Source: an uncultured Gammaproteobacteria bacterium (lineage in GTDB: Bacteria; Pseudomonadota; Gammaproteobacteria; JAGOUU01). Taken from it: a stretch of DNA of 58,780 bases. How positions within the stretch are numbered: position 1 is the first letter of the stretch; each line of letters opens with the position of its first letter. The DNA is taken from contig CAYGUI010000003.1 in assembly GCA_964353115.1 (NCBI GenBank), positions 1 to 58,780 on the forward strand. The letters run 5' to 3'. This document shows, piece by piece, positions 998 to 32,984 of the stretch. The translations under genes and the position numbers were made by a program. A model generated the notes under the pieces. It made no database searches. It worked only from the letters and a program-made list of their open reading frames with translations, and was not told where the DNA came from.

Positions 998-1005
998 AAA
1001 ATCCT

Positions 1006-8740: not shown

Positions 8741-9179
8741 GCGTAAAAAATATAGCGCTAAATTTATTGTAGAAATTATTGATTTTAATAAATCATTGTT
8801 CAGAGTTCAGACATTGTATAGCCGTGCACATGCTGACAAGATGTTGTTAGATAATGTGTTAAATAATAATTTTTTGTTAAATAATATTTTGCCAGAGCAA
8901 AGTTGTGTTGTGGGTATTTTAGCTGGTTTTAAGCGTAAGTATTTGTCTGAAAATTTGGAATTTTTTGATAAAGTTTCTGGTGTCCGCGAATATAGCCTAT
9001 TTCGATCAAATGTTGTTTATATTTTAGAGACAGAATTAGAGTTAGAAGATCTTTGTACCACACGAAAATTGATTAATCAATTACACCCTGTGGCGGCATT
9101 ATATTTAGGATTTGAGTTTGGTCGTAGCTTACTTAGAAAAAAGACTAATAATATTATTCCTTTTTTACGTATTATTTAA
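8727..9179 (+). CDS. Hypothetical protein with internal duplication
   Basis: Overlaps the methyltransferase; LLNNILPEQSCVVG and LINQLHPVAALYLG look like a repeated unit. Confidence 0.6.
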   Translation: MQLFKRKKYSAKFIVEIIDFNKSLFRVQTLYSRAHADKMLLDNVLNNNFLLNNILPEQSCVVGILAGFKRKYLSENLEFFDKVSGVREYSLFRSNVVYILETELELEDLCTTRKLINQLHPVAALYLGFEFGRSLLRKKTNNIIPFLRII

Positions 9180-14259: not shown

Positions 14260-14866
14260 AAAAAGTATCTAAATTGAAAACTTTAAAAAAATTAGCTTTT
14301 TCAGAGTAGGGCGCTAAAAACTTTAGGACTTCTTTGCTATCACTAAAATACCAAACTTCTTTGTATTTAGGAGTCTGCAAATAGTGCTGAAAGATTTTAT
14401 CAAAACGCGCCTTACTCTTACGAGTTAACTCTAGCTCTAAGGCGATATTTTGACTGTTTAGATCTAATATGGCATCTGGGGTATGGTTTTGTGTACCCCA
14501 TGAATTACGAGCAAAATTATGGCGAATTTCGCGCTCTGTTGTAACTTTATAATTTAAATTATGTTGTAGATCTAAAATTAGATCAGTTAATTTTATATCA
14601 TGATTATAATTCATGATATTTATCCGTCGTAGAGCTGGTAAATTTTCGTCTGCTAGAGCTGCTCCTCGGGGCGTTAATTTGTATGCACCTTTTTGTCGGT
14701 GGAAAATCATTTCATGTAAAAGATATTTATTAACTACCAATCGATTAATCATTTCATAGCCTGCTGATTTCTTAATTCCTAAAAATTTAGTAACTTGATT
14801 GATCGTTACAAACCCAAATTTATTAATCCATTTTAATAATTTTATATCCCTTTCCGTTACTCTCAT
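14225..14866 (-). CDS. Replication-relaxation family / MOBC-like relaxase
   Basis: MRVTERD winged-helix start, HD motif, PD...ALELELTRKSKARF PD-(D/E)xK motif; start moved to ATG 14866 (AGGGG RBS). Confidence 0.8.
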   Translation of the reverse strand: MRVTERDIKLLKWINKFGFVTINQVTKFLGIKKSAGYEMINRLVVNKYLLHEMIFHRQKGAYKLTPRGAALADENLPALRRINIMNYNHDIKLTDLILDLQHNLNYKVTTEREIRHNFARNSWGTQNHTPDAILDLNSQNIALELELTRKSKARFDKIFQHYLQTPKYKEVWYFSDSKEVLKFLAPYSEKANFFKVFNLDTFFEDTHAKTNIG

Positions 14867-14927
14867 TTTCTTCTTCCCCTTCTTTTTTCTTTTCTTATTT
14901 ATATCTCCACACTCCACACTCGCCCGA

Positions 14928-14974
14928 TACCTGACCACATTCTCGAAACCATGTTGAGAGGGTGTGGTCAGGTA
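14928..14974. other. Candidate oriT inverted repeat
   Basis: TACCTGACCACA (14928-14939) / TGTGGTCAGGTA (14963-14974), perfect 12-bp IR upstream of the relaxase. Confidence 0.55.
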
Positions 14975-15078
14975 ATTTTAAGCGCTAGCGCAAAATAGGG
15001 CGAGCATGTATGTGTGTATTTAATATATTGATTTTTCTTAAAAAATAGCGCTATTAAATTCCACAATTGCTGAATATA

Positions 15079-15624
15079 TTACCGGACACTATTTCCGGTA
15101 ACCAATACGGGTCTATACACGCCTTTAATTTGGCTTTTCCACACCCCTCCAAAGTATCTTGAATCCCAAGAACCACGTGGATTGTTGTTACCATATAACC
15201 AATATCCTAAGCTCAAATGATTTTTATTTTGATGAACCCAGGTTTTTATTTTGGGGGATTGAGGTGCAAAATATTCTTTATTACCGACTCTAATGTAATC
15301 ATCTTTGTAATGAACTATATTGCCTGGTAAGGCAATTACTTCTTTAAATATGGGCATGGAGCCATTGCTACAAATTCCATGTTTAATAAAATCATGCTCA
15401 ATTCCATAATCAGCAATTTCATCACTCAGGCAAACTTCAACCCACGAACCACGATCAAGCATGCCGCCAGTGCGATAATAAATTCCAATGGGCATTGATG
15501 AACTAAGATTAATTCGAAAGCCAAATAGGTATAAAAAAATAGCCAAGATAATGAATAATCTAAATAAAAGATTAAAGCTAAAATTTAAAATAAATTCCAT
15601 AAGAAAAATAAATGCAGTAACCAT
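15079..15624 (-). CDS. traF: Conjugative pilin-processing S26 peptidase
   Basis: INLSSSMPIGIY, K.V.ALPG, SWDSRYFG. Confidence 0.88.
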   Translation of the reverse strand: MVTAFIFLMEFILNFSFNLLFRLFIILAIFLYLFGFRINLSSSMPIGIYYRTGGMLDRGSWVEVCLSDEIADYGIEHDFIKHGICSNGSMPIFKEVIALPGNIVHYKDDYIRVGNKEYFAPQSPKIKTWVHQNKNHLSLGYWLYGNNNPRGSWDSRYFGGVWKSQIKGVYRPVLVTGNSVR

Positions 15625-16748
15625 TACGCTCCCTTAATATATTTTTTTGGTAAAATTAAATCTTTAGATAGTAGAACATTAAACGAACTTCCAGCTCTAA
15701 TTGTTAAGGTTGGCTGTACATTCATTTCTTTAGCTAATAGTTGAGCTCCAGTTTGCGATAGTTGTTGGCCCACAGCTCCAAAAGCAGTTTGCTGCGGGGA
15801 AGGTCCTTTGTCACCATTATTTTGTGGCTGGCTTAATTGTCCTGCAGCTCCAACCACACTGTAGAGTAGGGCGCTGCCAAAGATTTTAAGGTAATGAGAA
15901 TTCACTTTGTCATGCAAACCAGCGGCTCCCAAATTATCAACGCCCGGCATATTTTCTAAATTAATGCTACTACCATTAGGAAAAATTAAGCGCTGCCAGC
16001 CAATTAAAACACGGGACTGACCATACGATATTTGCGAATCAAATCTTCCTAATAATTTTGCTCCTTGCGGAATTAACAAATAATTTCCTGATGGTGAATC
16101 ATAAACATCACGAGAAACTTGTGCGCTAATAAAGCCTGGTAAATCAGAATTAATAGCTGTATTTAATACAGCAGGAATAATACTGCCAGCTGAAACGGTG
16201 TATGGTGAAACCTTAGGCTCAAAACTCAGTAATTTATCTTTTTGATGATATTTATCCAAGCTTAAAAACTTAGCTTTTTGGCCCTGCATATTTTGTTCTT
16301 TATAATTATTAGCGTCTGACGGCATAGTTATATTTGGATTTGACAGTTGATTATCTGCGGCATAATTTTTCTCATGAGAGATCAAGTCTTGCTCGTGATG
16401 AGCATTGTTATAAATTGAAATGTTTGACGCATAAGATTTATCTGGTTCACCGTCAGCATCTTTTTTTATATTCTCAATAAACTTTATTTCAGTCTTCGGT
16501 GTAACAGCTACAGGGCGCACAACCTCTTTTCTTGCTGCCTCGTGAACTATTGAATTATCATTTTCGTTTATATTTTTTGCGATATTTAATGGCTCATCAG
16601 GATTAATGTTTTTACTATTTGAGCTGTATTTATTCATCATTAGAAGAAATGAAATAACTACAAATACCAATAATCCCGCACCAATCATAATCACTCTTTT
16701 GCTGATCCCAGTTATTTCTGGGATTTGATATAAGTTTATTTTTTTCAT
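15624..16748 (-). CDS. trbI: TrbI/VirB10
   Basis: AGSIIPAVL.TAINSDLPG, LLIPQG, W.RLIFPNG, PTLTIRAG. Confidence 0.92.
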   Translation of the reverse strand: MKKINLYQIPEITGISKRVIMIGAGLLVFVVISFLLMMNKYSSNSKNINPDEPLNIAKNINENDNSIVHEAARKEVVRPVAVTPKTEIKFIENIKKDADGEPDKSYASNISIYNNAHHEQDLISHEKNYAADNQLSNPNITMPSDANNYKEQNMQGQKAKFLSLDKYHQKDKLLSFEPKVSPYTVSAGSIIPAVLNTAINSDLPGFISAQVSRDVYDSPSGNYLLIPQGAKLLGRFDSQISYGQSRVLIGWQRLIFPNGSSINLENMPGVDNLGAAGLHDKVNSHYLKIFGSALLYSVVGAAGQLSQPQNNGDKGPSPQQTAFGAVGQQLSQTGAQLLAKEMNVQPTLTIRAGSSFNVLLSKDLILPKKYIKGA

Positions 16749-17656
16749 TATGACATCCGAGTTATAATTACCTTTTTATTGTTTGAGCTAATCAGCGCAG
16801 CTCTTTGAATAACGCTATCAATAACGTAGTAAGGATGTTTGTATCGATAATTAACCAATTCGGTTTTGCCATTATTTTCTAAATACAAAACTGGTAAATT
16901 ATTTTGCTCAATATCTTGCGGCATTTCTATTAATGTATGAACGCCGTCATCGAATATCCTATCAGGACAGATTGCATATCTTTCAGCGGCAATATCATAA
17001 TGAAAATTAACTTTATCTAAATTAATATTAGGACTTGCCGTTATAACTTCATTGCTATGATTATTATTTTCTAGATTTTGTAAGGATTTTTTAAGTGTAT
17101 CTTCAGGGTAATAGAAGCTCATAATTCGTGTAGTAGCTCCTTCACGACTAATTAAACCAACGTTATAAGTTCTTTTTGTCGTAGTTATGACCATATCTGT
17201 TGCCAGCTCAATTGACTTTGGCTTGATAGTTATTTGATATGAGCCAGTTTCAGCAGTTCCAACGCTAGATGTACTAACCAGCCAATTTATCGAATCTCCC
17301 ACATCAATATTATTTATTTTTTCACCTTGTTCGAGTTGCAGCACACATAAATGAAGGGGAGAGCATTGCACCATAAATTGTTCGTAAGGGTTGTAAGCCA
17401 TTATGTTTATTCCTTTGCCTGCAATATTTTTAGCAATGCCGTTTTTCGAATATTCTTTATAAGCCTTTACAACTTTAGGGTCTTCTCCTAAATTAAAAGT
17501 CGCATTAACTTTTGGTTCTGGCAAATGCACAGCTATTTTTTCTGTGACTATTCTCTTAGGAGCGATAAAGTTTTGATAGTTTATTTGTTGCGGTGGTCGT
17601 GTTGCTTGGCATGATGCTAAAGTAGCTATCATTGGTATCAGTAATAATTTTTTCAT
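16748..17656 (-). CDS. trbG: TrbG/VirB9 lipoprotein
   Basis: LASC lipobox, L..GE, GDS..W, TTKRTY, FDDG..T.I, VNYR. Confidence 0.9.
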   Translation of the reverse strand: MKKLLLIPMIATLASCQATRPPQQINYQNFIAPKRIVTEKIAVHLPEPKVNATFNLGEDPKVVKAYKEYSKNGIAKNIAGKGINIMAYNPYEQFMVQCSPLHLCVLQLEQGEKINNIDVGDSINWLVSTSSVGTAETGSYQITIKPKSIELATDMVITTTKRTYNVGLISREGATTRIMSFYYPEDTLKKSLQNLENNNHSNEVITASPNINLDKVNFHYDIAAERYAICPDRIFDDGVHTLIEMPQDIEQNNLPVLYLENNGKTELVNYRYKHPYYVIDSVIQRAALISSNNKKVIITRMS

Positions 17657-17664
17657 ATTTTCTC

Positions 17665-18300
17665 CTATCCTTCTTTAGTTAATACAAATTGCGTCACATA
17701 AAATCCTAACGGATTATTCTTCAAAATTAATTCATCCTTAGATGGTGTGCCATATTGATAAGTAATGGTCGCTAAATAGTTTTCTCCTCCTGTTTTTTCT
17801 CCAGTATTTTTACGTATTGTTTCTTGCCAACGAATATCAAAAGTATTGTCAGAGCGTTTCAAAATACTGCTGATATTTATTTCAGTAATGTTTTCCGTTG
17901 ATTTTTGTCGTTCATAAAAGCTATTTTCAGTACGCTTACGAGCAGCACCAGTGCTTAATGACATGGCGCGAATAATATTATCTTTATTAGCAAAGTTATC
18001 TAGCGTTTGATTGCGCGAATAAATTAAAAACTGTTTTACAAAATAGGGCGCAAGATTATCTTTAATATTTTTATCCTGAAATTCTTTGGGTGAAGTTATG
18101 ATGGCATCACCATGAATAATGAAAGGGTAGGGCTTAATAAAAGATTTTTGCGCAGTAATTATCAGTCCAACAATGGTTAAAGCTAATAATCCCGCTAGAA
18201 TAAAGTTAATCTTTACACTGGTTTTCAACTTATTCTCAACCGAGCCGTATAAATCATTCCACAATAATTTTGACTGCAAATATGGATTGTTATCTTTCAT
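17665..18300 (-). CDS. trbF: TrbF/VirB8
   Basis: NPY...W...YG, TM helix, W.E, NPLGFYV. Confidence 0.88.
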   Translation of the reverse strand: MKDNNPYLQSKLLWNDLYGSVENKLKTSVKINFILAGLLALTIVGLIITAQKSFIKPYPFIIHGDAIITSPKEFQDKNIKDNLAPYFVKQFLIYSRNQTLDNFANKDNIIRAMSLSTGAARKRTENSFYERQKSTENITEINISSILKRSDNTFDIRWQETIRKNTGEKTGGENYLATITYQYGTPSKDELILKNNPLGFYVTQFVLTKEG

Positions 18301-19238
18301 TATTTTCTCCTAAAGTTTGGTGGTGATATTTTTCGTAGTGCTTGAGCCAAGTTTTTAGCGCCTTTTAACGTATTTACAGCTGCTTTCATTGAACCCTTTG
18401 TCATATATTTAGCATTCATTACGGTGCTCATGGCGCCACTAGCGTAATCTCCTGATAACCCCGGAGCTACCAGATTAGACATAAAGCTAGGAATATTTTT
18501 AAAGATAGAAAAATAAACGATGACTGTCGCTAAAATAAGCAGCATGCTCATAGCTTCGCCATTTTCTGCAGCTTTTTTTGTTAAATCTGCCCATTCATAA
18601 CCTAAGTTTTGGCCGACAGATAAAATTAAATAAGTAATCATTAAGCGCACGCCTAGTGCTATTACGGCGCGCATGAAATTAACTGCTAGATCACGAGAGT
18701 GCTGATTAGCCCCGCAGGCAAAAAAGAAACTGCTTGTTGCAACTAAAACATATGATTTCACGATTAGAATCGTAAGCTCTGCTGCGATAAAAGCATAAAT
18801 TATCATTATAATAATGCAGATCATTACTGCTAGAGCTGAAACAAACGGATGCCTTAATAATCCCACGCTAGCTAATGAATAATAAATAGAGCCGACTATT
18901 TGATATCCCTGATCGATTATGCTGCTAGGATTAACGGCAATATTGGTATTAGCTTGATTACCTATTTCCATAAAGCTATTGAAAATGTCTGGCAGCCAGT
19001 TTCCTCCTAAATCTATTAAGGCGTAAAAGACTGCAAAAAAGATGCAAGATTTTATTATTTCTATAGCAGCTTTTTGTGCAGACTCACCAGTTAAGCTTAA
19101 CCATAAAGATGTTGTAGCTAATTGAATAATCGCCAGATATTTAAATATGCTATATGCCGTTTGTTGCAAAAAAAGACTATCTTTTATTAATGCGACTGAA
19201 AATTCATTTGTTACTGAATCTAAAATTCCTGCATCCAT
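18300..19238 (-). CDS. trbL: TrbL/VirB6
   Basis: Polytopic membrane protein, PSSIIDQG, position between trbJ and trbF. Confidence 0.85.
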   Translation of the reverse strand: MDAGILDSVTNEFSVALIKDSLFLQQTAYSIFKYLAIIQLATTSLWLSLTGESAQKAAIEIIKSCIFFAVFYALIDLGGNWLPDIFNSFMEIGNQANTNIAVNPSSIIDQGYQIVGSIYYSLASVGLLRHPFVSALAVMICIIIMIIYAFIAAELTILIVKSYVLVATSSFFFACGANQHSRDLAVNFMRAVIALGVRLMITYLILSVGQNLGYEWADLTKKAAENGEAMSMLLILATVIVYFSIFKNIPSFMSNLVAPGLSGDYASGAMSTVMNAKYMTKGSMKAAVNTLKGAKNLAQALRKISPPNFRRK

Positions 19239-19246
19239 GCTAACTC

Positions 19247-19966
19247 CTATTTAAATCTCATTCGATTAAAATTTATTTTGGGCTTATAACGCTCTTTAGG
19301 AAAGCTATCAATAACTTCTTGCATCGCTTTATCTTCTTGCGCTTCATTAGTCACCTGATGCGACATAAAAACTGCACTAGCATTAGACTGTGCAGCAATA
19401 ATCTTTTTAAGTTCTTGTAATTGATTTACATTTTCTGCTGCAATTTCACTAGAAACTTGCAGTGCTTGCATTTGGCCAGCGGAAGATTTACTTTGAGCTT
19501 TTAAAGCCTCGATAGTCCTTTGTTGTTTTTCAAAGTTTTCCGCGCTTTTTTGTAGCAATAAAATATTATTTTTTATGGTGTCACGTGCAGTTTGCAGTTG
19601 CGCTTTATTTTGCTGATTTTTTTGCTGTAAATTATTATTTGATTGCATTTTATCTATATCAGGAAAAATTTTATTAAACTTTTCATCCGCATTTTTCATG
19701 GTGTAAGATAAAGCTTTTCCGCGTCTTGACACATCATCCATTTGATTCATTAGCCCGCTTAGATCTCTCCATTCTAATTTTTTTATATTTTTTACATTGT
19801 CTATAGCAATTTCAACTGCACGAATTTCATTTTTTAATTGCTCGTACTGCCTCACATACATTAGACCATTTTGAATGCCGTTAACTATGTCAACAACAGG
19901 AAATCCTGATGCTAAAATATTGGCTGATGCAAAGACTAATGTAGCTGCTAGTAAAGTTTTTTTCAT
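19247..19966 (-). CDS. trbJ: TrbJ/VirB5
   Basis: Signal peptide, GFPVVD, Gln-rich coiled coil, GQMQALQ. Confidence 0.85.
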   Translation of the reverse strand: MKKTLLAATLVFASANILASGFPVVDIVNGIQNGLMYVRQYEQLKNEIRAVEIAIDNVKNIKKLEWRDLSGLMNQMDDVSRRGKALSYTMKNADEKFNKIFPDIDKMQSNNNLQQKNQQNKAQLQTARDTIKNNILLLQKSAENFEKQQRTIEALKAQSKSSAGQMQALQVSSEIAAENVNQLQELKKIIAAQSNASAVFMSHQVTNEAQEDKAMQEVIDSFPKERYKPKINFNRMRFK

Positions 19967-19995
19967 CGTAAATTTCTCCTTTTTATTTATTTTAA

Positions 19996-20091
19996 AATCC
20001 CCAGCGCCGTTGGCGCTGCCCCCTTTTTCAAAGTGGGCTAATTCTCTACTTTGAAAAAGGGGAGATGTCGCCTATGGCGACAGAGGGGATT
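19996..20091. repeat. Multibranch palindromic element between trbE and trbJ
   Basis: Outer AATCCCC/GGGGATT; inner stems AGCGCC/GGCGCT, CCCTTTTTCAAAGT/ACTTTGAAAAAGGG, TGTCGCC/GGCGACA. Confidence 0.8.
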
Positions 20092-22285
20092 ACCCACACG
20101 TATATTCCTTCGCCACATCCCCAAGCTCTAAATTAAATAACCTCGAGCCATTTGGAGACTGATAATAATAGTCTCGTTTAGGTTGTGCATTTTTTATAAC
20201 TGCTATTTCCTCCGTGGTTAAGCCAAAAGATTGATAATGTTCCGATAGTAATTTTTCTTGTGCTTTACTATTTGGTAAAAATATTCGTGTGAGACAAGCT
20301 GATTGAATAGTGCTTGCTGCTTTAGAAGTCGCTATATCAGAAACATCTTGGGAGGCAATAATAACTGCAACATTAAATTTTCTTAAGGTTTTAAACCAAT
20401 CAACCAGTTTTTCCTGAAATAATGGGTGTTTCAAGTAACACCAGGCTTCCTCTAGTACTAGTAAGGTTCTCTTTTTTTCGCGAAACAACAAGTCTAACTG
20501 ATTGAATATTGCTGTAATTACTGGTAACGCGATGTTTTTTTGATTATCATCCAGGAAATTTCCTAGCTCAAAGCCTAAAATATCTAAATTATTAAGATTA
20601 TTTTCAGTGCCATTTAATAAGTATTTAAAAATTCCTTGGTTTAAAGTATCAATAGCAATGCGCAGTTCTTGGTCTTGTAAACTCAAATGCTCTAGATTTT
20701 TATATTCTTGTGGCTCAGTAGCTAATCTTGTAACAGCTTCAAACAATATTTTTTGTCTGTCAGCATCGACAATAACTCCTTTAGACTCACAGCAAATACG
20801 CAACCATTCTGTTGCTAGGCTAATCTGATAATCATTGCCAGGATTGATTTGTGCTAATGGAGATAGTTGAAAGTCTTTTTGCATTAAATCAAAATAATTA
20901 CCATCTAAGGCTTTAATGATTTTTTTATTTGAATAATCTTTATCTAAAACAATAATTCTAGAATCATCATATTTTCTGTGTGCTGCAATTAAATTCGCCA
21001 ACAAGGTACTTTTGCCTGTTCCAGTTGGCCCAAGAATTGCAGTGTGACCTACATCTCCCACATGTAAACTTAAATAAAATGGTCGCGAGCCTTTAGTTAC
21101 AGTTTGTAGTAAATAATCTGGCTCGCCGCTGTACACTGAGCTTATGGGTAAAACATGGCTGGCAAATTTACTGTCAATAAGCATTTTGCGTAAATTATAT
21201 TCACCATGACCGGGCAGGCTACCTAAGTATGCCGCGCAAGCATTTACAGTCTCGATTCTGGCTTTAAAATTTAACTGTTGAATATGATTAATAATTTCTT
21301 GGGAAATGTTTTTTAATTTAATTAAATCTTCGCCCTGTAAAATCAATACCGAACTATAAAAACCAAAAGTTAAATTGCCGCTTTCATTTTCGCATTGTAA
21401 ATCTCTTAGATTATCTGCGGTATTTTGTGCATCTTCATTTAACTGCACGCTAAGCCCCATCGACTCACGGATAATACCGAAAATGCCAATAGCTTTTGAC
21501 GACCAGTTTTTAGTGTGTTTTTTTAAATAATTTTGTGCTGCATCTTTACCTAGCGGTATAAATCTTGAAGAAAAGCGATAATTTATCGATAAATAACTTA
21601 AATTTTCTAAAATTGCCGGATAACTTGCAGCTGGGATATCATCGATAGAAATAGTTAAGATATTTTTATTATTAATTTTTGGCTCAAACCCGGTAGTAAA
21701 ATCATAAGCTAAATAATTATCTAAAAATGCTCCTTGAAAAGGCTTTTGTAGCTTGTTATTGCTGCCTGTTATGCAGGTGTTTAAAAAAGATACTAAATCA
21801 GTATCTTCGAGAGCATTAATAGATAATAAGCTACGCGCTAAAAAACTAATAAATTCTTCAGTCTTATCATTGAAAAATTTACTGAAATCACTAGTGTAAT
21901 TATCTAGAGCTATTTTTGATAATCTATTCTGAGCTTCAATATTTTGTTTGAAGCTGATAGATAAAATATATTTTGTATCAACAATCTGTGAGCTTTCACA
22001 GCGTTCCTTGTTAATTTCCCGTGCTACTTTTTCTTTATATTGATGATTATTAATATTTTTTTGTGCTTGGCTAATTATATTAGTTTCCAGCATCCAACCA
22101 TCGCCTAAAAAACTAAATGCCTGCTGCCAGGTACTACTTAAAAAATCAATATCATCTTCTGACATAGAATCAATATCTGGCGCTTTATAACTAAAATGAC
22201 GCGATAAAGATCCGTCTTTGTGTAGTACCGTTTTTGAATCAATTAGTAATAAGTAATTTAATAACTCGCTAAATCCTTGTTTCAC
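20090..22285 (-). CDS. trbE: TrbE/VirB4 ATPase
   Basis: KDGS, GSLPGH, LHVGDVGHT, Walker A GPTGTGKS, EEAW, KTLRK. Confidence 0.93.
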   Translation of the reverse strand: MKQGFSELLNYLLLIDSKTVLHKDGSLSRHFSYKAPDIDSMSEDDIDFLSSTWQQAFSFLGDGWMLETNIISQAQKNINNHQYKEKVAREINKERCESSQIVDTKYILSISFKQNIEAQNRLSKIALDNYTSDFSKFFNDKTEEFISFLARSLLSINALEDTDLVSFLNTCITGSNNKLQKPFQGAFLDNYLAYDFTTGFEPKINNKNILTISIDDIPAASYPAILENLSYLSINYRFSSRFIPLGKDAAQNYLKKHTKNWSSKAIGIFGIIRESMGLSVQLNEDAQNTADNLRDLQCENESGNLTFGFYSSVLILQGEDLIKLKNISQEIINHIQQLNFKARIETVNACAAYLGSLPGHGEYNLRKMLIDSKFASHVLPISSVYSGEPDYLLQTVTKGSRPFYLSLHVGDVGHTAILGPTGTGKSTLLANLIAAHRKYDDSRIIVLDKDYSNKKIIKALDGNYFDLMQKDFQLSPLAQINPGNDYQISLATEWLRICCESKGVIVDADRQKILFEAVTRLATEPQEYKNLEHLSLQDQELRIAIDTLNQGIFKYLLNGTENNLNNLDILGFELGNFLDDNQKNIALPVITAIFNQLDLLFREKKRTLLVLEEAWCYLKHPLFQEKLVDWFKTLRKFNVAVIIASQDVSDIATSKAASTIQSACLTRIFLPNSKAQEKLLSEHYQSFGLTTEEIAVIKNAQPKRDYYYQSPNGSRLFNLELGDVAKEYTCG

Positions 22286-22563
22286 ACTAATCCTCCAATT
22301 GCAGGATAAAACTTGGTTAAATTAAACTTCATATTTTGTTTGATTAATGCTGCCAGATACACATCGTAATTGGTTAAAATCTTAGTTATAAAGTGCATGA
22401 CAATAAACAAACCCACACCTATAAACACAGCAGGAAATCTAAAATGACTGGCAGCTAATAAAGGAAAAGAGATTAAAAAATTCATGCTAATCCATTTTTT
22501 ATGCACGCCAAAAACTAAGATAGGGCGGCTCAGTGCTTTGTTAACCATGCTGACATTTTTCAT
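22282..22563 (-). CDS. trbD: TrbD/VirB3
   Basis: KALSRPILVFGV and two TMs; start ATG 22563 overlaps the trbC stop (ATGA). Confidence 0.8.
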   Translation of the reverse strand: MKNVSMVNKALSRPILVFGVHKKWISMNFLISFPLLAASHFRFPAVFIGVGLFIVMHFITKILTNYDVYLAALIKQNMKFNLTKFYPAIGGLV

Positions 22564-22850
22564 GAAATAACTGCTCCTGAAAATCCTAAAAAATTTGTAA
22601 CTATCTGAGTTGAGAAAACTGCTAAAGATATTCCACAACATGATTGTAATAATCCTTTTGCCCCACTTTGTAAATCTGTAAAAGCAATAACAAAGCCGCA
22701 AACAGCAATGGAAATAATCGCTAATGAATATGCAATATTTCCCGATAAGGCGCCAATTATTTTAGTAAATACTCCGTCTAGCTCATGAAGCCCATCTGAG
22801 GCAAAAGTGTTTTGTGTGAATATAGCCAATAAAATTAAATACTTTTTCAT
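22560..22850 (-). CDS. trbC: TrbC/VirB2 pilin
   Basis: Signal peptide, two hydrophobic helices, FSGAVI C-terminus. Confidence 0.82.
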   Translation of the reverse strand: MKKYLILLAIFTQNTFASDGLHELDGVFTKIIGALSGNIAYSLAIISIAVCGFVIAFTDLQSGAKGLLQSCCGISLAVFSTQIVTNFLGFSGAVIS

Positions 22851-23776
22851 AAAATCTCCGTTAAGTTAAATCGTTTAGTTTTAGAATCAAAGCTTTCAAC
22901 TTCTGCAATACTCGTCACTTTGCGTTTACCGTTTTCTACCGCTATTTGCACAATGATGTTAATTGTCGCTGCAATAAGTGCGTATGGTGGATTGGCAACA
23001 GCCTCCATGCATAAATCAATAATTCGCTGAATAGCAAGCTTAGGAGTATTTGCGTGAATTGTTGCTAGGCCGCCAGGGCATCCAGTGTTAAATGCTTTTA
23101 GCATATCTAACGCTGCGCTATCTCGCACCTCCCCGATCACAATTCTGTCTGGCGTGTTACGCATGCAGATCCATAGAAGTTTATTCATGTTCACTGTTGT
23201 ACTTTCTTGCATCTTTTTAGTATTTTTTAATGCACATTCGAGCTCAGGAATTTGTTCTAAAATTAAAATTCTGTGCCCTCCACTTTCAACTTCTGATATT
23301 TTTTTTAAAATTGCGTTTACAAAAGTTGTCTTGCCAGATGCTGGAGCTCCGCTAACTAAAATATTTTTACGAGACTTAATTGCATCGACTAAAAAATGAA
23401 ATTGTTCTAAATTTAAAACATCTTGCTGCACGTATTCTTTGAGTGATATTTCTTTTGTCGTTTTAAGGCGAATATTAAACGAAATTCCAGGAGTTATTGG
23501 TGAAGTAGTAACGTTGATCCTCTCTCCACCAAAAGGTAAAATTTCATCCAAATACGGCGTTTTATCTGAAATGAATTTTCCAGAATAATTTGCAACGGCG
23601 TGAACAAAATTTTCTGCTTCAGTTTGCGACATTGATCCTGCTTGCATGTTGCCATGCTGCGCATGTTTAAACCAAACATCCCCATTTGGGTTTAACATAA
23701 TTTCTTGAATGCCAGGAAGCGCAAATCCTTCTTGAACTATTAACCCCATTTTTTGCCATAAATATTCTTGTTGCAT
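22847..23776 (-). CDS. trbB: TrbB/VirB11 ATPase
   Basis: EIMLNP.G, Walker A GAPASGKTT, PDRIVIGEVR, NTG.PG..TIHAN. Confidence 0.92.
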   Translation of the reverse strand: MQQEYLWQKMGLIVQEGFALPGIQEIMLNPNGDVWFKHAQHGNMQAGSMSQTEAENFVHAVANYSGKFISDKTPYLDEILPFGGERINVTTSPITPGISFNIRLKTTKEISLKEYVQQDVLNLEQFHFLVDAIKSRKNILVSGAPASGKTTFVNAILKKISEVESGGHRILILEQIPELECALKNTKKMQESTTVNMNKLLWICMRNTPDRIVIGEVRDSAALDMLKAFNTGCPGGLATIHANTPKLAIQRIIDLCMEAVANPPYALIAATINIIVQIAVENGKRKVTSIAEVESFDSKTKRFNLTEIL

Positions 23777-24762
23777 TATTGTTTCCTGATTCCTACTGAT
23801 CTCATTGCTTGCTGCATCATCAAATTAACTTTTGCTTTTTCTTCAGCGCTTAATACTTTTCGTTCTTTAACTTCCGCAGGTTTGTGGTAATTAGCGCTTT
23901 GCCCTTTTGGTGCTTTAAGATTAACCTCGTCTTCCCAGCGCTTATCACGAAGCCAGGTGTCAGGATCTGGCCATTGAGGTGTGAACTCGTTATTTTGTTT
24001 TTTGATTTTTTTTGCTTGCGCTTGATTGTTTAGAGCGCTAAGAATTTTCTCTAGATTTTCAGAATTGATATTGGCATTAAAAAAACTGTCTTGAGCTTTT
24101 TGTTTTTTGATTGGCTTATCGGTTACTTCAGACCACTTGTTCCAGAATTTTTCAAAATAATCACACGCGCTCTCTTTGTGTGTAATCTTTGTAGTAGTCT
24201 TTGTATATAGTATATCGCTTTGGTTTGTACGTCCCGGCTGATCACTTTGTACTTCCGGGTTGCACATTTGTATATCTGGGGATGTACATTTGGTAGGTTC
24301 CGTTGGTACATTTGTACACTCGGTATTGTTAGATTTGTTGTAGTGATTATCAAGCCATGTATCGACCCTATCAGGGTGAAATAAAAAATATCTGGTACTG
24401 TCAAAGGCGTAACGAGGATTTGGATTTTTATGAATACTAACAAACCCCATTTTCAATATTATTTGCAGTGCTTTTTCAACTTTTCTACGGCCAAAACCCA
24501 TCAAGCTTTTTTGTAGATCATCCATCGTATGCCACTGAAATAATGACTCTATCTGCTGGCGATTGTCTCCATGTCGTTCAGCTATATCATTATATTTCTT
24601 GGCTTGCGAATATTGGTCCAATTTGATATTGTGCCAATATTCGAATAGATTTAAGAGAGCAGCGGCAACAAAGTCATTTTCACATGCGGCAACATAGCTT
24701 TCTCGTGTTATGACTAAGCGTTCTTTGGCTGGATGGTTTTTAACACATGAGGTTCTTGGCAT
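23776..24762 (-). CDS. Phage-type replication initiator (lambda O / replisome-organiser-like)
   Basis: N-terminal winged helix, repeat-rich linker, YTKTTTKIT, FEKFW...K..K..A...F, P.TWL...RWEDE; GGAGG RBS. Confidence 0.75.
   Translation of the reverse strand: MPRTSCVKNHPAKERLVITRESYVAACENDFVAAALLNLFEYWHNIKLDQYSQAKKYNDIAERHGDNRQQIESLFQWHTMDDLQKSLMGFGRRKVEKALQIILKMGFVSIHKNPNPRYAFDSTRYFLFHPDRVDTWLDNHYNKSNNTECTNVPTEPTKCTSPDIQMCNPEVQSDQPGRTNQSDILYTKTTTKITHKESACDYFEKFWNKWSEVTDKPIKKQKAQDSFFNANINSENLEKILSALNNQAQAKKIKKQNNEFTPQWPDPDTWLRDKRWEDEVNLKAPKGQSANYHKPAEVKERKVLSAEEKAKVNLMMQQAMRSVGIRKQ
24224..24324. repeat. Iteron-like array inside the initiator gene (candidate oriV)
   Basis: TTTG(T/G)TA-type units at 24224, 24246, 24267, 24289, 24311 (spacing 22/21/22/22). 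Confidence 0.65.
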
Positions 24763-24796
24763 ATGTGCCTCCTTGCTGTTTTGTCGATTTTTGTTT

Positions 24797-24834
24797 ACAA
24801 TTTAAATGTACAACAAAAAATGTATTTTTGTCAA
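24797..24834 (-). promoter_or_regulatory. Leftward promoter/operator for the rep-trb operon
   Basis: TTGACA-N18-TACATT with a TACA-N8-TGTA palindrome between the boxes; 28/29 inverted match to 25552-25580. Confidence 0.75.
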
Positions 24835-24854
24835 GATTGAACTAGAATTTTTTT

Positions 24855-25514
24855 ATGAAAACATTAGCAGAGCGTATAAAATTAGTAATGAAAGAGTCTG
24901 GAATGACTCAAGTCTCATTAGCAGATAAAATTGGCGTTAAACAACAGACTGTACAATCAATTTGCTCCGGTCGAATTAAGCGTTCGCGTTATACGCATGA
25001 TATCGCTGATAAATTGGGTGTAAATCATGATTGGCTATTAAGTGGGGATGGCGATAAATGGTTACAAAATGACGAAGGAGCTTTAATAAATCCCCCTGTT
25101 AAATATGTTCCTATTTTGCGATGGGAAGAGTCTGCAGAATGGGATGAGCTCAGAAACACTCCTAATGCCTTGAAAAACCATACTTTATTGCCAGTTATTG
25201 GCGATGTAAACCCTTCTTCTTTTGCTTTGCAAGTTACTGGTGACAGTATGTTATCAGATGATAGTTATAGTATTCCAGATGGCAGTATTATTATTGTTGA
25301 TCCGGTTAAGGAGCCAGAGCATAAGTCATTAGTTGTTGTTTCGATACCTGAAACAGATGATATTATTTTGCGTTTGCTTAGCGTTGAAGGAAGTAAACGG
25401 TATCTAAAAGCATCTAATACATCTTATCCTGATGCTGTTATAGAATTTCCTCGAAATGGAAAGATGTTAGGTGTTGTATCTATGAGTCTACGGTCGTTCA
25501 TTAACTTTTTTTAA
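24855..25514 (+). CDS. CI/LexA-like repressor (HTH_3 + S24)
   Basis: TLAERIK...TQVSLADKIGVKQQTV HTH; FALQVTGDSM; IVDP. Confidence 0.9.
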   Translation: MKTLAERIKLVMKESGMTQVSLADKIGVKQQTVQSICSGRIKRSRYTHDIADKLGVNHDWLLSGDGDKWLQNDEGALINPPVKYVPILRWEESAEWDELRNTPNALKNHTLLPVIGDVNPSSFALQVTGDSMLSDDSYSIPDGSIIIVDPVKEPEHKSLVVVSIPETDDIILRLLSVEGSKRYLKASNTSYPDAVIEFPRNGKMLGVVSMSLRSFINFF

Positions 25515-25543
25515 AGTGTTTTAACATTTCTGTTGTTTTTTTC

Positions 25544-25580
25544 TTGCATCTATACATTTTTTGTTGTACATTTAGATTGT
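25544..25580 (+). promoter_or_regulatory. Rightward promoter/operator for the xis-like gene
   Basis: TTGCAT-N17-TACATT with the same TACATTTTTTGTTGTA element. Confidence 0.75.
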
Positions 25581-25606: not shown

Positions 25607-25804
25607 ATGGAAATTAAAAAAGTGTTAACGGAAATGGAAGCGGCAAATTACATTTGCATGAGCCGTTCTTTCTTGGCTCAAGATCGTATGAATGGCCAAT
25701 ATAAAAATCGTACTGCTGGTCCCAAATATATGAAAATTGGCCGTGCTATTCGTTATTTGCTTGATGATCTGGATTCTTGGTTAATGCTGCATCGTTGTGG
25801 CTAA
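25607..25804 (+). CDS. AlpA/excisionase-like HTH protein
   Basis: LTE.EAA.YI.MSRSFL, GP.Y.KIGRAIRY...DLD.W; GGAG RBS. Confidence 0.85.
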   Translation: MEIKKVLTEMEAANYICMSRSFLAQDRMNGQYKNRTAGPKYMKIGRAIRYLLDDLDSWLMLHRCG

Positions 25805-25884: not shown

Positions 25885-27027
25885 ATGCTATCCCGAGAAA
25901 TAAACAATAAAGTACAACACTTTACTCAATTTAAATACAAAGTTTCCAATTCGGTATATTACACTACTCACCTCTTATCTTTTCTAGGATTTATAATCAG
26001 TATTTCATACACTGGTATTTATGGCTGGCAGCAAGGAATTACTTTTTATGAAAAGATTTGTAATTGCTCGGCTTATATTATTGCTGATGCGATGCTCGCC
26101 TTTTTTTGCGCTTATTTAGGTGCTTTTAATGCACATCGATCATGTAAGTTACGAATTTGGCAAATGCGTTTAATCGGCTTTGTATTGTTCTGCTTATCGA
26201 TTGTTGCAATGGTTTCCGATTTGGCATCACAACATGATCTTTCGAATCAACAAATAGCTTCGTCCTATGTTAAAACTTTAAATGATCAATATACTGGCAG
26301 TTTGGATACAGAAAATAGGCTTAAAAAAGCTATAGAAAAATTAGACCCCCTATCCCAACCTGGTAATTATCGTCAGATATCACGACATTTATCTGATATA
26401 ACATTGCAAAAAAGAGAGATTTTACACCGCCTTCCAAAGCCTGAAGTTTCTTCTGTTAACAGCTTAAACTCCTGGTTAGCTCAAAGATTTGAGCTGGCTG
26501 AAAAGTCAGTAAATATTATTATTAAGGCTATTTGGGCCATTTTCTTTATTGCTGGATTTACAGTTATAGCATCAACTGGTGCTAGTCAGTACTGTGATGC
26601 CAGCCTTTTTCATTTTATTTCAAAGCAGCAAAGATTGGCTTTGAAAGCTATTAGAAAGCAAGCCAATTTTAATAGGAAGCTAGCACAAGCAACAGGAGAG
26701 CTAGATGGAAGCAAGAATGAGCAAGGTGGAAGCCAAAAGAAGCAACCAGGAAGCCAAAAGAAGCAGACACGAAGCATAGCTAAATTATCTTTAAAACCAA
26801 AGGGTTCTGGTAATTTTGGCGGAAGGCAAATTTCAACTTGGGTCGCCAACTATAAATACAAAAATATAGTCAAGTCGCTGAGTCAGAGCAAGGGAAACCC
26901 ATCACAGCGTAAGCTCCAGGATGTTTATGCGCTGACTAAAGAGCAGGCTAAATTGATGATAGGGTGGATGTTGGTTGATGGGGTTATTCGGCAGCAGGCT
27001 AATAGACAATATAGGTGGATAAATTAG
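25885..27027 (+). CDS. Membrane protein with coiled coil and C-terminal winged-helix-like domain
   Basis: About 4 TM segments, coiled coil, C-terminal PSQRKLQ...A..MI..M...GVI. Confidence 0.6.
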   Translation: MLSREINNKVQHFTQFKYKVSNSVYYTTHLLSFLGFIISISYTGIYGWQQGITFYEKICNCSAYIIADAMLAFFCAYLGAFNAHRSCKLRIWQMRLIGFVLFCLSIVAMVSDLASQHDLSNQQIASSYVKTLNDQYTGSLDTENRLKKAIEKLDPLSQPGNYRQISRHLSDITLQKREILHRLPKPEVSSVNSLNSWLAQRFELAEKSVNIIIKAIWAIFFIAGFTVIASTGASQYCDASLFHFISKQQRLALKAIRKQANFNRKLAQATGELDGSKNEQGGSQKKQPGSQKKQTRSIAKLSLKPKGSGNFGGRQISTWVANYKYKNIVKSLSQSKGNPSQRKLQDVYALTKEQAKLMIGWMLVDGVIRQQANRQYRWIN

Positions 27028-27094: not shown

Positions 27095-29185
27095 ATGGAA
27101 AAGAAAATTACTAATATATTCATCTTAATTTTATCTTTTTGTATGTTTTCTATAAGTTACGGAAAATTAGTTGAATATAATCTCGATATAGATTACAAAA
27201 TTGTTAATTTTGCTAACAAAAATATTAAAACATTAGCTATTAATAACCAAATTCCAGCACCACTTATAAAAGCACGAGAAGGAGATATTCTTCGCGTTAC
27301 TTTTAATAATAAACTTGATGAAGAGACTTCTATTCATTGGCATGGAATTTTGCTCCCTAATGATCAGGATGGTGTACCATATTTAACTACAATGCCAATA
27401 AGAGCCCACACAAGCTTCACTTATGAGTTCCCAATTATTCAAAGCGGAACGTACTGGTATCATTCGCATACTAATTTACAAGAGCAACAGGGGCTCTATG
27501 GACCTTTAGTTTTTTTGCCAAAAACAAGTGAAAAATATAAAGAAGATCTAGTAATTATGTTCTCTGATTGGAGTAATGAAAATTCTAATACTATTTGGCG
27601 TCATTTAAAGATAGATGATGATTATTATTCACTAAAAAAAGATACCGTGCAGTCATGGCTTAAAGTATTGCAACATGGAAAGTCCGCAATCAAAAATCGT
27701 CTAAAAAGCGCCTGGACACGCATGGGGCCAATGGATGTTTCTGATGTTGGATATGATGCTTTTTTAGTAAATGGTTCTCAAAAGATATCGTATTCTAAAT
27801 ACAAAAAAGGCGATAAAGTTTTATTGCGCCTAATTAATGGCTCAGCGTCTACTTACTTTAATGTTGAGTTTGCAGGCGGTTCAATGGAGATTATTGCGGC
27901 TGACGGCCTAAATGTTAAGCCGATTAAAGTTGAAAAATTAAAAATTGCAATAGCGGAAACTTATGATGTTTTAGTAACTTTGCCTAAAAATGAATCTTAT
28001 GAACTTAGAGCAACAGCGGTAGATGGCAGCGGGTATTCTTCGACTATTCTTGGATCTGGCAAATTAAATAAAGCGCCGGATATGCCAAAACCAAATTTAT
28101 TTGTTGGCCATGATCATCATATGATGATGAATCATAAGGGTCACAATATGAGCCAAAGCATGGATCATTCTGCTCATAGTCATATGGAGCATATGAAAAT
28201 GGCTGTACCTAAAATTATCGAGCTTAATAATTATAAAGAACTAGCGGCGCCTCATAAAACAACTTTGCCAAAAGGGCGGCCAGAGCGAGTAGTAAATTTA
28301 GAACTCACAGGATTTATGGAAGGCTATGTGTGGTCTTTTAATAATAAAACTTTGTCAGAGGCAGATAAAATTTTAATTAAAAAAGGGGAGAATGTTAAAT
28401 TTGTTTTAGACAATAAGACTATGATGAATCATCCCATACATCTTCACGGCCATTTTTTCAGAGTTCTAAACGGGCAGGGGGATTACAGTCCGCTTAAACA
28501 TACTGTAGATGTGCCGGCTATGAGTAAGGTTGAGATAGAATTTGCAGCAGATGAGAAAAAAGACTGGTTTTTTCATTGCCATAATTTATATCACATGAAA
28601 TCTGGTATGGCACGAGTAGTTCGTTATGAAGGAACCGTTACTGATCCTAAATTAATTGAAGCTAAAAAAACTGATCCGTGGCCGCATGACGATACGTATT
28701 TTTTCCAGCCAAAAATTTCTGTGATGTCTAATAAACTACAAGGCATGGCGCGTGTATTTAATACCAAAAATACCGTATCGATTAAAGCTGAATATAATTA
28801 CAAAGACGAATATGATATTGATTTATTGTATTCTCGAAGATTTACTAGACATTTTTACGCTTATGCTGGTGGGAATTTCAAAAAAGAGCATGATGCACCT
28901 GATGACGGCAATAAAGGAGTTTTTGGTTTTACTTATGTGCTGCCATTATTGATTCATACGGATTTGCGAGTTGATACTAACGGGCATGTGAAATTTGCTG
29001 CAGGAAGCGATTTACAATTAACAGATCGGTTTGATTTTGAATGGGAAGTTAATACTGATAAAGAATATGAATTTATGTTGAATTTTGCCTTTAATAAAAA
29101 AATATATGCTAGCGTGAATTATTCTTCGGATTTAAATTATGATGAAAAGATAAAATTTGGTGCAGGTATTACTGTAATGTATTAA
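27095..29185 (+). CDS. Multicopper oxidase (CopA/PcoA type) with C-terminal beta-rich extension
   Basis: HWHG, WYHSH, HPIHLHGH, HCHNLYHM; His/Met-rich linker. Confidence 0.93.
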   Translation: MEKKITNIFILILSFCMFSISYGKLVEYNLDIDYKIVNFANKNIKTLAINNQIPAPLIKAREGDILRVTFNNKLDEETSIHWHGILLPNDQDGVPYLTTMPIRAHTSFTYEFPIIQSGTYWYHSHTNLQEQQGLYGPLVFLPKTSEKYKEDLVIMFSDWSNENSNTIWRHLKIDDDYYSLKKDTVQSWLKVLQHGKSAIKNRLKSAWTRMGPMDVSDVGYDAFLVNGSQKISYSKYKKGDKVLLRLINGSASTYFNVEFAGGSMEIIAADGLNVKPIKVEKLKIAIAETYDVLVTLPKNESYELRATAVDGSGYSSTILGSGKLNKAPDMPKPNLFVGHDHHMMMNHKGHNMSQSMDHSAHSHMEHMKMAVPKIIELNNYKELAAPHKTTLPKGRPERVVNLELTGFMEGYVWSFNNKTLSEADKILIKKGENVKFVLDNKTMMNHPIHLHGHFFRVLNGQGDYSPLKHTVDVPAMSKVEIEFAADEKKDWFFHCHNLYHMKSGMARVVRYEGTVTDPKLIEAKKTDPWPHDDTYFFQPKISVMSNKLQGMARVFNTKNTVSIKAEYNYKDEYDIDLLYSRRFTRHFYAYAGGNFKKEHDAPDDGNKGVFGFTYVLPLLIHTDLRVDTNGHVKFAAGSDLQLTDRFDFEWEVNTDKEYEFMLNFAFNKKIYASVNYSSDLNYDEKIKFGAGITVMY

Positions 29186-30761: not shown

Positions 30762-32984
30762 TTATTTCTCCGAAACTTTAAACCAGCGTAATCTATTAGC
30801 GTTGCTTACAACGGTAACAGATGATAATGCCATAGCAGCGCCAGCAATCATTGGGTTTAATAATAAGCCAATAAACGGATATAAAATTCCGGCTGCAATT
30901 GGAATTCCAATGCCGTTGTAGAAAAATGCACCTACAAGATTTTGTTTTATATTTGTCAAAGTAGCTCCAGAAATAGCTATAGCATTGGTAACGCCGTGTA
31001 TAGAACTTCGCATAAGCGTTATATCAGCACTTTCAATGGCAACATCAGTACCTGAACCAATTGCAAAGCCAATATCGGCTTGCGCGAGAGCAGGAGCGTC
31101 GTTAATGCCGTCTCCTACCATGCCAACTATGTGTCCTTGAGTCTGTAATTCTTTTACTTTATCTGCTTTATGCTCGGGTAAAACATCAGCAAAGACTTTA
31201 TCAATGCCGACCTGCTTAGCCACAACTTTAGCAGTCGTCTCATTATCGCCAGTTAACATCACTACTTCTATGCCTAATTTTTTGAGGCGCCCTATAGCAT
31301 CTTTTGAATCATCTTTAATCGGATCAGCAACAGCAATAATTCCAGCTGCATTATTATCAATCGCCATGTACATTGGTGTATGACCTAGGTTGGCAAGTTC
31401 AAGGGCTTTGTTTTGTAGTGAATCAATATTAATATTATTTTTAGTCATTAATTTATCATTGCCGAATAAAATATTTTTGTTATCCAAACTTGCTGAGACC
31501 CCATGTCCCGCAATAGCAGCAAAATTATTTATTTTCAAAATTTCTAGATTTTTACTTTTTGCAGATTCAACAATTGCTTCGCCAAGAGGATGTTCAGAGC
31601 CGCTTTCAATGCTCGCAGCTAATTGCAGTAAATTATCTTGAGATAAATTATTAGCTGCATAAACTTCAGTGACTTCTGGATGTCCCAAAGTTATAGTTCC
31701 AGTTTTATCTAGAATAACGGCAGTTAATTTTGTAGCCTGTTGAAGCGCTTCGCCGTTTCGAATTAAAGTACCATTTTCTGCGGCTTTGCCCATGCCGACC
31801 ATGACAGAAATAGGCGCAGCAAGACCTAATGCGCAAGGGCAGGCGATAATTAATACGGTCATTGATGTTACTAAAATAAAGCCAACTTTAGGATCGGGTC
31901 CAAAGTTAAACCAAATAAGCCCAGTTAAAACAGAAATAACCATAACTGCAGGCACAAAAAATGATGATACTGTGTCGGCCAGGCGCGCAATTGGCATTTT
32001 TGTATTTTGTGCTTGCTGCACTAAATTTACAATTTGTGCAAGAGCAGTATCTTTACCAATGCGAGTTGCTTTAAAAAGAAAACTTCCAGTTTTATTGATT
32101 GTACTGCCAATAACTTCATCGCCAACTTGTTTTTTAACAGGGATGGGTTCACCAGTTAGCATTGACTCATCAACTGTTGAGTGTCCCTCAGTAATTTCAC
32201 CGTCTACTGCTATTTTCTCGCCAGGACGGACGCGTACAATATCATTTAATTGTACATCTTCTATGGGTATATCAATTTCTTGGCCATCTCGTAGCACTCG
32301 TGCAGTTTTGGCTTGCAAACCGATTAGGCGTTTTATAGCTTGCGATGTTTTACCGCGTGCACGAATTTCAAGTGCTGCCCCAAGATCAACTAGGGCAATA
32401 ATAATTAAAGCTGCTTCAAAATATACATGCTGGGCTAGAGGTGGAACGATATTAGGAAAAACTGTAATAAACTGTGAGTATATCCATGCAGTGCCAGTTC
32501 CTAAGGCTATTAGCGTATCCATTGTCGCATAATTATTTAAAAACGCCTTAAAGGCATTGCGATATAAATATCCACCAGAATATCCCATAATTATTACAGT
32601 GATAATTCCTATAATAAACCAAATAATTTGTCCCGCTGTTTCAGTGATGGGTGGGGTGAAATTTGTAATTCCTAGAATATAAAAAATAACCCCGAAAATG
32701 CCAGCTACAATAAATTTACGCATTAGCATTCTAAAACGCACAAATTCTTCTTGCTCTTCTTCTATAATATCGAATTTTTCAAATGGCTCAGCATCATAGC
32801 CAACGTTTTTAATAGCAGAAATTAGTGTGTCGGATGAGACATTACCGATTATAACAGCGGTTTTTTCTGCAAAGTTAACTTGTGCATTTTCTACTCCATC
32901 AACTTGATTTAATGCAGTTTCTATAGTTTTCACGCAGCTTGCGCAGCTGATATCTTTTAGAGATAGTTTTATTTGTTCGTCCAT
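30762..32984 (-). CDS. copA: Cu(I)-translocating P1B-ATPase
   Basis: CASC HMA domain, TGE, CPC, DKTGT, SEHP, GDGIND, YN, MALSS. Confidence 0.95.

Follow-up and report, generated by a model that had tools for sequence, protein, structure and literature searches.

We analysed a stretch of DNA of 58,780 nucleotides (nt) from an uncultured gammaproteobacterium (contig CAYGUI010000003.1; here referred to as the window), in which an integrative conjugative element (ICE) carries a gene resembling Legionella lvrA at the head of its conjugation operon. With a probability of roughly 0.6, the product of this lvrA-like gene is an LvrA-family initiator with two domains and of phage descent, which would be comparable to the O protein of phage lambda and would have its origin of vegetative replication (oriV) within the DNA coding for its own disordered linker. 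The locus is most economically explained by an initiator of the lambda-O-like (or RepA_N-like) kind whose iteron origin is intragenic and which is turned on together with the mating pore. The gene and its putative parts are as follows:

23776-24762, minus strand: lvrA-like gene of 328 amino acids (aa), putative replication initiator, heading the Trb operon
24325-24762, minus strand: N-terminal winged-helix domain, residues 1-146, from the AlphaFold2 model
24224-24332, no strand assigned: five iterons of about 22 base pairs (bp), plus-strand consensus TTTGTAc..ccgGG.Tgg, gene nt 431-539
24170-24211, no strand assigned: three 12-nt repeats of the coding-strand TACAAAGAYTAC type, candidate unwinding element in linker-coding DNA, gene nt 552-593
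23908-24177, minus strand: helical C-terminal domain, residues 196-285, predicted local distance difference test score (pLDDT) >90, with matches to PHROG 9327 and 9474

The initial annotation of the window had reported five repeat units at a spacing of 22/21/22/22 bp. These were found on the plus strand with starts at 24224, 24246, 24267, 24289 and 24311. At least three direct repeats about two helical turns apart are expected of an iteron-type origin, and here five are present; a sixth, weaker unit follows at 24334-24355. The units occupy the coding-strand frames 2, 1, 1, 0 and 2, and because all three frames are used the array is not a peptide repeat, as the annotation had argued in calling it a repeat at the DNA level. 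Its quasi-palindromic core GTACATTTGTAC could likewise be located, once exactly (24306-24317) and once with two mismatches (24262-24273). Part of the array was also detected by Tandem Repeats Finder (TRF; period 22, 2.3 copies, score 56, 24224-24272) and by a second repeat finder (families D2, D6 and D8).

The mean pairwise identity of the five 22-mers was 11.1 of 22 positions. None of 5000 random in-phase sets from the window reached this value (mean 6.12, standard deviation (sd) 0.81, maximum 10.10), although the observed set, being aligned to the motif with one 21-nt step, has a slight advantage over the random ones. A periodicity score that counts 9-mers recurring with at most one mismatch at an offset of 20-24 was 9 for the lvrA-like gene; synonymous-codon shuffles gave at most 7 (0 of 200 reached 9), and among whole-codon shuffles 1 of 200 reached 9. 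The array ranked fourth among the window arrays of period 20-24, and the three stronger ones had TRF periods of 21 or 15, both divisible by 3. That the repeat arose by chance or as a by-product of a low-complexity linker peptide is hardly credible. Such an origin would fit the disorder of the linker and the bare 7-mer TTTGTAC, which was not enriched across the window (11 copies, 9.3 expected), yet 3 of these 11 copies lie within 94 bp at the array. The three different reading frames, the outcome of the synonymous shuffles and random sets, and the recurrence of the same layout with other motifs in relatives all speak against it.

The strongest tandem array of the window is located at 58306-58457 (7.5 copies of 21 bp, 93% matches) and forms an in-frame heptapeptide repeat in the open reading frame (ORF) at 57979-58719 on the minus strand. 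In-frame 21-bp repeats (about 3 copies, 26699-26775) were also present inside a 380-aa ORF at 25885-27027.

The iterons had been proposed to lie between two protein domains, and this was borne out by the AlphaFold2 model, which was built with 150 sequences. Two confidently predicted domains are joined by a disordered linker that is encoded by the repeat DNA. The N-domain was confident at residues ~10-146 (pLDDT >90 at ~20-140), the linker at residues 147-195 was disordered (pLDDT ~42), and the iteron-coded residues ~144-180 had a pLDDT of ~42-52.

A phage-like initiator had also been suggested, and PHROG families of replication initiation indeed matched both the protein and its family representatives. 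The protein matched PHROG 270 'replication initiation protein' (E 1.7e-14) and furthermore 9327 'primosomal protein' and 9474, while the match to 678 'replication initiation O-like' was marginal (E 1e-3). In a comparison of 136 family representatives with the PHROGs 34 families were matched, and all named ones among the 25 listed were related to replication: 'DnaD-like helicase loader' was counted 25 times, phrog_270 16 times and 'replication initiation O-like' 14 times, and 'replisome organizer' was matched as well. Pfam found Phg_2220_C in two of the 136 representatives, DnaT in one, MarR_2 in one and nothing else. The nearest Atlas clusters carried the automatic names 'replication protein' and Phg_2220_C.

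A profile search at E <= 1e-3 retrieved 10,951 representative proteins, most of which share the N-domain only; 507 remained at E <= 1e-30. The nearest full-length relatives were proteins of Legionella and other Legionellales, 36-42% identical to the query along 86-100% of its length. One of these, from Legionella quateirensis (P0017; E 5e-65, 41% identity, 87% coverage), bears the UniRef name 'Vir region protein', which we take to be LvrA of the lvrRABC cassette. By tblastn one weak match was obtained among deposited phages and three among plasmids. The motif of the C-domain (F..FW..YP ... P.P.TWL...RWEDE) was additionally seen alone, behind unrelated N-termini (DUF6291, DUF1376-like), at five loci (L009-L013) in contigs of Clostridia and other metagenome-assembled genomes (MAGs), so that the C-domain is a separate mobile module which has no Pfam model.

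The best solved structure for the N-domain was 4pta_D, a staphylococcal plasmid 'MDR initiator' (Z 8.4, rmsd 5.0, 110 residues aligned), and the DnaD N-terminal domain entries 8ojj and 2vn2 reached Z 6.5 and 6.0; generic winged-helix regulators, at Z 7-8.2, were level with the solved initiators. Among predicted viral structures (BFVD) 89 fold matches were found at E <= 1e-3. Function-bearing names were mostly DnaD-like, replication protein, replisome organizer or RepA-like, and the same list also held generic helix-turn-helix (HTH) and DNA-binding names, one 'Regulatory protein' and one 'Transcriptional regulator'. No PDB entry was matched by Foldseek at E <= 1e-3, either with the whole model or with the C-domain, and the profile of the family alignment gave one noise match (E = 1) among PDB sequences. 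For the C-domain alone no solved structure stood above noise (best VIA-align Z 6.1); its likeness to the N-domain of SPP1 G39P (Z 5.7, rmsd 2.3, 64 of 67 residues) is below the noise level for helical bundles.

The relatives of the lvrA-like gene retain the layout, with repeats at the end of the N-domain spaced 21-23 bp apart, but not the motif. In six genes of the Legionella clade and two MAG genes (L001-L008) the repeats are centred on ATCGAT with a spacing of 22-23 nt at gene nt ~470-555. Three copies were present in L001, L002, L003, L006 and L008, two in L004 and L007 and one in L005. Three 22-nt repeats directly follow the N-domain in a Deinococcus plasmid gene, and three 21-nt repeats do so in a gene of a Bacillus phage-plasmid. 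The host of the window is not Legionella. Its GTDB order comprises five genomes, and its own genome has a size of 1.5 Mb and a G+C content of ~34%. Searches at the family and at the order level covered the same five genomes and gave two matches, one being the gene of the window itself and the other a locus of the sister genus (L017), where 22-23-nt repeats are followed by four 13-mers. The gene at this locus (G001 contig 41, ORF 1114-1896, minus strand) is shorter, with 260 aa; it has no FW...RWEDE C-domain and has kept the iterons, the four 13-mers and the C-terminal tail. A 172-aa ORF (726-1244, minus strand) overlaps its 3' end.

According to the initial annotation, conservation of the repeats at the protein level only would speak against an origin. 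In the Legionella clade this was not what we found, since silent sites were most conserved over the repeats. Among L001-L006, which share 61-85% amino-acid identity, the share of identical codons at identical residues was 0.83-0.94 in the iterons and 0.89-0.99 in the 13-mer box, as against 0.52-0.78 in the N-domain and 0.35-0.68 in the C-domain. The part of the protein that is least conserved in length is therefore the one most conserved at silent sites.

Next to the iterons the annotation had noted an AT-rich tract with two copies of TCTTTGTA. The repeat itself is real (TRF period 12, 3.1 copies, 24173-24211), and the tract is a local minimum of duplex stability within the gene; its AT-richness is only modest. 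Over 40 bp the stability was -42.8 kcal/mol, whereas the window averaged -48.3 (sd 4.2) with its 99th percentile at -39.5; this makes it a weak A/T tract about 1.3 sd less stable than the mean. Two to four repeats of 12-13 nt containing AGAYTAC follow the iterons in the window gene, L017, L001, L004, L006 and several phage loci, with a period of 12 in some members and 13 in others. The density of AGAYTAC was 3.29/kb at gene nt 480-700, 0.10/kb elsewhere in the genes and 0.06/kb in the flanks, an enrichment that is descriptive only because the motif was defined after the sequences had been inspected and the loci are related. Two or more copies at gene nt 480-700 were present in 9 of 33 genes. 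The retention of AGAYTAC where the iterons differ suggests a shared DNA element, which may be an unwinding or loading site.

Upstream of the lvrA-like gene a divergent repressor gene and an inverted repeat were found:

24855-25514, plus strand: lvrR-like repressor, 219 aa, HTH_3 and Peptidase_S24, CI/LexA type, divergent from the lvrA-like gene
24834-24805, minus strand: promoter-like site, -35 TTGACA, 18-nt spacer, -10 TACATT, 10 of 12 matches, overlapping an arm of the inverted repeat
24797-24825, minus strand: arm 1 of the 29-nt inverted repeat, in the promoter-like region of the initiator and Trb genes
25552-25580, plus strand: arm 2 of the 29-nt inverted repeat, 28 of 29 positions complementary, upstream of a 65-aa ORF (25607-25804) beyond the repressor gene, in the promoter-like region of this ORF

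We read both arms as probable twin operators of the repressor. All four copies of AAATGTAC in the window lie within 1.3 kb (24284-25573), and the promoter of the lvrA-like gene as well as one more promoter nearby contain it. The iteron-like octamer in the 29-nt arms probably belongs to the repressor operator. By eye the product of the 65-aa ORF resembles a small HTH protein of the AlpA/Xis type, and Pfam gave no match for it.

The clustering of AAATGTAC at the gene's own promoter would also be expected if the protein were a DNA-binding transcription regulator of the transfer genes, and if the repeats were regulatory sites (for autoregulation, roadblock or nucleation) and no origin. Excerpts of Wee et al. 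2013 (PMC3864950) label lvrRABC as a regulatory module, and the fold of the N-domain fits many winged-helix regulators as well as it fits initiators. We nevertheless consider this explanation unlikely. The promoter copies lie inside the 29-nt inverted duplication that flanks the repressor gene, where repressor operators are the better fit, and in none of seven other loci was the gene's own iteron core present within 140 nt upstream. Furthermore, the named PHROG relatives are replication proteins, with no regulator family among the matches listed; some phage members adjoin replicative helicases; and a 21-23-bp phasing followed by 12-13-mer repeats is an origin-like architecture. Autoregulation through iteron-like promoter sites was considered separately as a feature of the family and was rejected on the same two observations, the location within the inverted repeat and the missing upstream cores.

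The region of the lvrA-like gene is part of an integrated element, an ICE. Its left attachment site, attL (7129-7176), consists of the last 48 nt of the tRNA-Glu gene (7101-7176), and the second copy of this perfect 48-nt direct repeat forms attR (41580-41627). The two copies delimit an ICE of about 34.5 kb (~7129-41627), which contains, in addition to the att repeats at tRNA-Glu, an integrase, genes of a type IV secretion system (T4SS) and a coupling protein:

40250-41413, minus strand: tyrosine integrase (Phage_integrase and Arm-DNA-bind_3), adjoining attR at the ICE end far from the tRNA
22847-23776, minus strand: trbB, VirB11-type ATPase (Pfam T2SSE E 2e-27; NCBIfam TrbB_P E 3e-82, below the cutoff of the model)
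12838-22850, minus strand: remaining transfer genes, namely TrbC, D, E, J, L, F, G and I, a TraF-like peptidase, a MobC-like protein and the T4 coupling protein

As had been stated in the initial annotation, the lvrA-like gene leads the conjugation operon, followed in the same orientation by TrbB, C, D, E, J, L, F, G and I, and its stop codon overlaps the ATG of trbB by one base (TAATG). In the transfer set, which lies entirely on the strand of the lvrA-like gene, alternative family names were TrbD/VirB3, TrbE/VirB4, VirB8-like and CagX/TrbG-like. Cumulative GC skew has a local minimum within the ICE at ~22-24 kb, the site of the putative origin; since the gene orientation switches at the same place, this adds no independent evidence.

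An lvrR-like/lvrA-like pair precedes the P-type Trb set in the ICE of the window, an F-type set (TraL, TraE, TraK, TraB-like) in Legionella quateirensis (L006) and VirB2/VirB3-like genes in the sister genus (L017). Standing before three kinds of T4SS, the pair is a portable module.

The position of the lvrA-like gene as first gene of the transfer operon could also mean that repeats and protein are not there for vegetative replication and act in conjugative DNA processing, the protein being an accessory factor close to oriT or a loader of the relaxosome. As to relaxases, no canonical one could be recognised on the ICE; there was only the MobC-like protein (14225-14938, minus strand; 'replication-relaxation' match, E 2.7e-14, below the model cutoff), whose gene adjoins that of the coupling protein. 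Two nearby ORFs on the plus strand (10315-11655 and 12073-12849; 446 and 258 aa) matched no family. On Legionella islands, too, an oriT or a conserved relaxase was not found according to excerpts of Wee et al. (PMC3864950). We regard this alternative as highly improbable. Hundreds of relatives reside in phage contigs, which have no oriT, some of them beside DnaB-like helicases, and two are located on plasmids typed as non-mobilizable.

For an initiator with an intragenic origin the following course of events can be envisaged. The CI/LexA-type repressor (24855-25514) would hold the leftward promoter (24834-24805) closed, and upon derepression the initiator would be produced as first product of the Trb operon. 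Its winged-helix N-domain would bind the five or six iterons of ~22 bp, phased by about two helical turns, the neighbouring 12-nt tract (24170-24211) would melt, and the helical C-domain would recruit the helicase and primosome of the host. The excised circle of 34.5 kb would then be copied in theta mode during assembly of the mating pore. Iteron binding, unwinding, helicase recruitment and replication are steps that we only infer.

Apart from the weak 12-nt tract, the descriptive AGAYTAC figures and the regulator-like fold scores given above, a number of points weigh against such an initiator and origin. Neither Pfam nor NCBIfam matched the protein or either of its domains alone (Pfam threshold E <= 0.01, 0 families), and this includes Phage_rep_O and RepA_N (PF06970). 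No helicase, loader or primase family was present among the ICE ORFs scanned, of which about 8 were matchless in any family. None of 32 window matches to the DnaA box TTATCCACA (at most one mismatch) fell inside 23776-24762. The iteron units are only ~50% alike among themselves. The silent-site test is confined to the Legionella clade and does not extend to the array of the window, because the window gene has no close relative; the best match is only 41-46% identical, and the genome searches found none with the iteron type of the window.

When each locus was scanned as a whole for arrays of period 17-26 nt, the strongest one started between -70 and +116 nt from the N-domain end in 20 viral loci out of 33 and in 5 genome loci out of 8, while the best array was elsewhere in the other 13 viral loci; the viral loci cannot separate DNA from peptide repetition because their period is mostly 21 or 24 and hence in frame. 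Shuffles of single loci reached the observed score in 0 of 200 cases for the window, L001, L014 and L015, in 1 for L002 and in 6 each for L003 and L006, but were not significant for L004 (99 of 200), L005 (73), L007 (27) and L008 (26). Some arrays of the Legionella clade, those in L004 and L005, are decayed. A gene for a DnaB-like helicase or primase-helicase was found downstream in 5 of 10 phage relatives scanned, where the ten ORFs had been drawn from 16 loci and five large ones chosen for their size.

Several of these points, namely the ~50% likeness of the units, the decayed arrays of L004 and L005 and the failure to find a helicase or loader gene among the ICE ORFs, are also what a relic would leave behind, and the sister-genus gene without C-domain could be added to them. 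The ICE would then have captured an initiator from a phage or plasmid whose internal origin no longer fires, with another role or none for the protein. This is quite improbable in our view, since the reading frame is uninterrupted and its translation coupled to that of trbB, both domains fold confidently in the AlphaFold2 model, silent-site constraint in the Legionella clade is strongest over the repeats, and the lvrR/lvrA pair has been kept before the P-type (window), F-type (L006) and VirB2/B3-like (L017) systems.

The proposed initiator can be compared with several known systems. Lambda O is a two-domain initiator with the iterons of ori-lambda inside gene O between its domains and an A/T-richer tract beside them, an arrangement also known from gene 18 of P22. 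As in lambda O, the iterons of the window lie in the interdomain-linker DNA of their own gene and are followed by a tract that is only modestly A/T-richer, with a CI-type repressor region adjacent; as in P22, some phage relatives of the window protein have a DnaB-type helicase gene downstream. Unlike lambda O, the protein has no match to Pfam Phage_rep_O and reached the 'O-like' PHROG 678 only at E 1e-3, a P-type loader or helicase gene was not found on the element, and the gene heads the type IV secretion operon of an ICE and not a phage replication operon. The replisome organizer G38P of phage SPP1 has oriL inside gene 38, and the phage encodes its own loader G39P and helicase G40P. The window shares with it a putative origin-binding organizer with repeats in its own gene; it differs in that the C-domain has only a sub-threshold fold likeness to the N-domain of G39P.

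RepA_N plasmids have their origin within the middle portion of the rep gene. In RepA_N initiators (RepA of pSK41/pTZ2162 and PLE RepA of Vibrio cholerae), a variable, host-specific C-domain is joined to a DnaD-like winged-helix N-domain that binds semi-palindromic iterons, as stated in excerpts of PMC7145576. The best solved-structure match of our model is the plasmid 'MDR initiator' 4pta_D, level with generic regulators; a PF06970 match was not obtained, and the element of the window is an ICE of a Gram-negative bacterium. Legionella LvrA is homologous over most of its length, and its gene likewise precedes a T4SS and diverges from that of an lvrR-like repressor. The window protein is shorter (328 compared with ~360-400 aa), and its iterons are of the TGTACA type and not of the ATCGAT type of Legionella. 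Neither lvrB nor the CsrA-like lvrC follows the window gene, because trbB is coupled to it directly with an overlap of 1 nt.

ICEBs1, as cited in excerpts of PMC3864950, undergoes relaxase-driven rolling-circle replication from oriT with the host helicase after excision. The ICE of the window is likewise an integrated conjugative element for which replication is predicted after excision; unlike ICEBs1, its module is built like an iteron (theta-type) origin. For Legionella genomic islands, excerpts of the same 2013 paper (PMC3864950) report the absence of a recognisable replication module and present lvrRABC as a regulatory cassette unique to Legionella, and the islands occur as episomes according to excerpts of PMC4010831. 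No proposal of an origin in lvrA or lvrRABC, or of iterons in Legionella ICEs, was found in the openly accessible papers searched.

Elsewhere on the ICE the cargo consists of metal genes, namely a multicopper oxidase (27095-29185), a copper-type P-type ATPase with HMA domain (30762-32984) and a cation-diffusion facilitator (37947-38885). An IS3-like element with two ORFs (HTH_Tnp_1 and rve) is inserted amid this cargo at 34271-35769. A second repressor-like gene with HTH_3 and Peptidase_S24 was present near the left end of the ICE (9172-9837, minus strand).

The lvrR/lvrA pair could be the missing replication module of Legionella-type islands, an idea that we put forward tentatively and consider rather doubtful at present. 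It would form a one-protein, SOS-gated theta replicon with the origin in the linker codons, which could be plugged in before any T4SS operon. The AGAYTAC repeats found across the family would then serve as a conserved site of unwinding or loading, separate from the iterons, which are specific to each lineage, and the C-domain would be a built-in helicase-loader adaptor that makes a separate loader gene unnecessary. If the lvrA family consists of initiators with an intragenic origin, this would account for the upkeep and amplification of island circles during transfer and would supply a directly testable origin for a class of elements thought to be without replication genes. A large family that is nameless in Pfam and NCBIfam (10,951 representatives, E <= 1e-3) would be relabelled as O-like initiators. 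It would furthermore be a clean case of overlapping codes with strong silent-site constraint, which gene-only annotation has overlooked.

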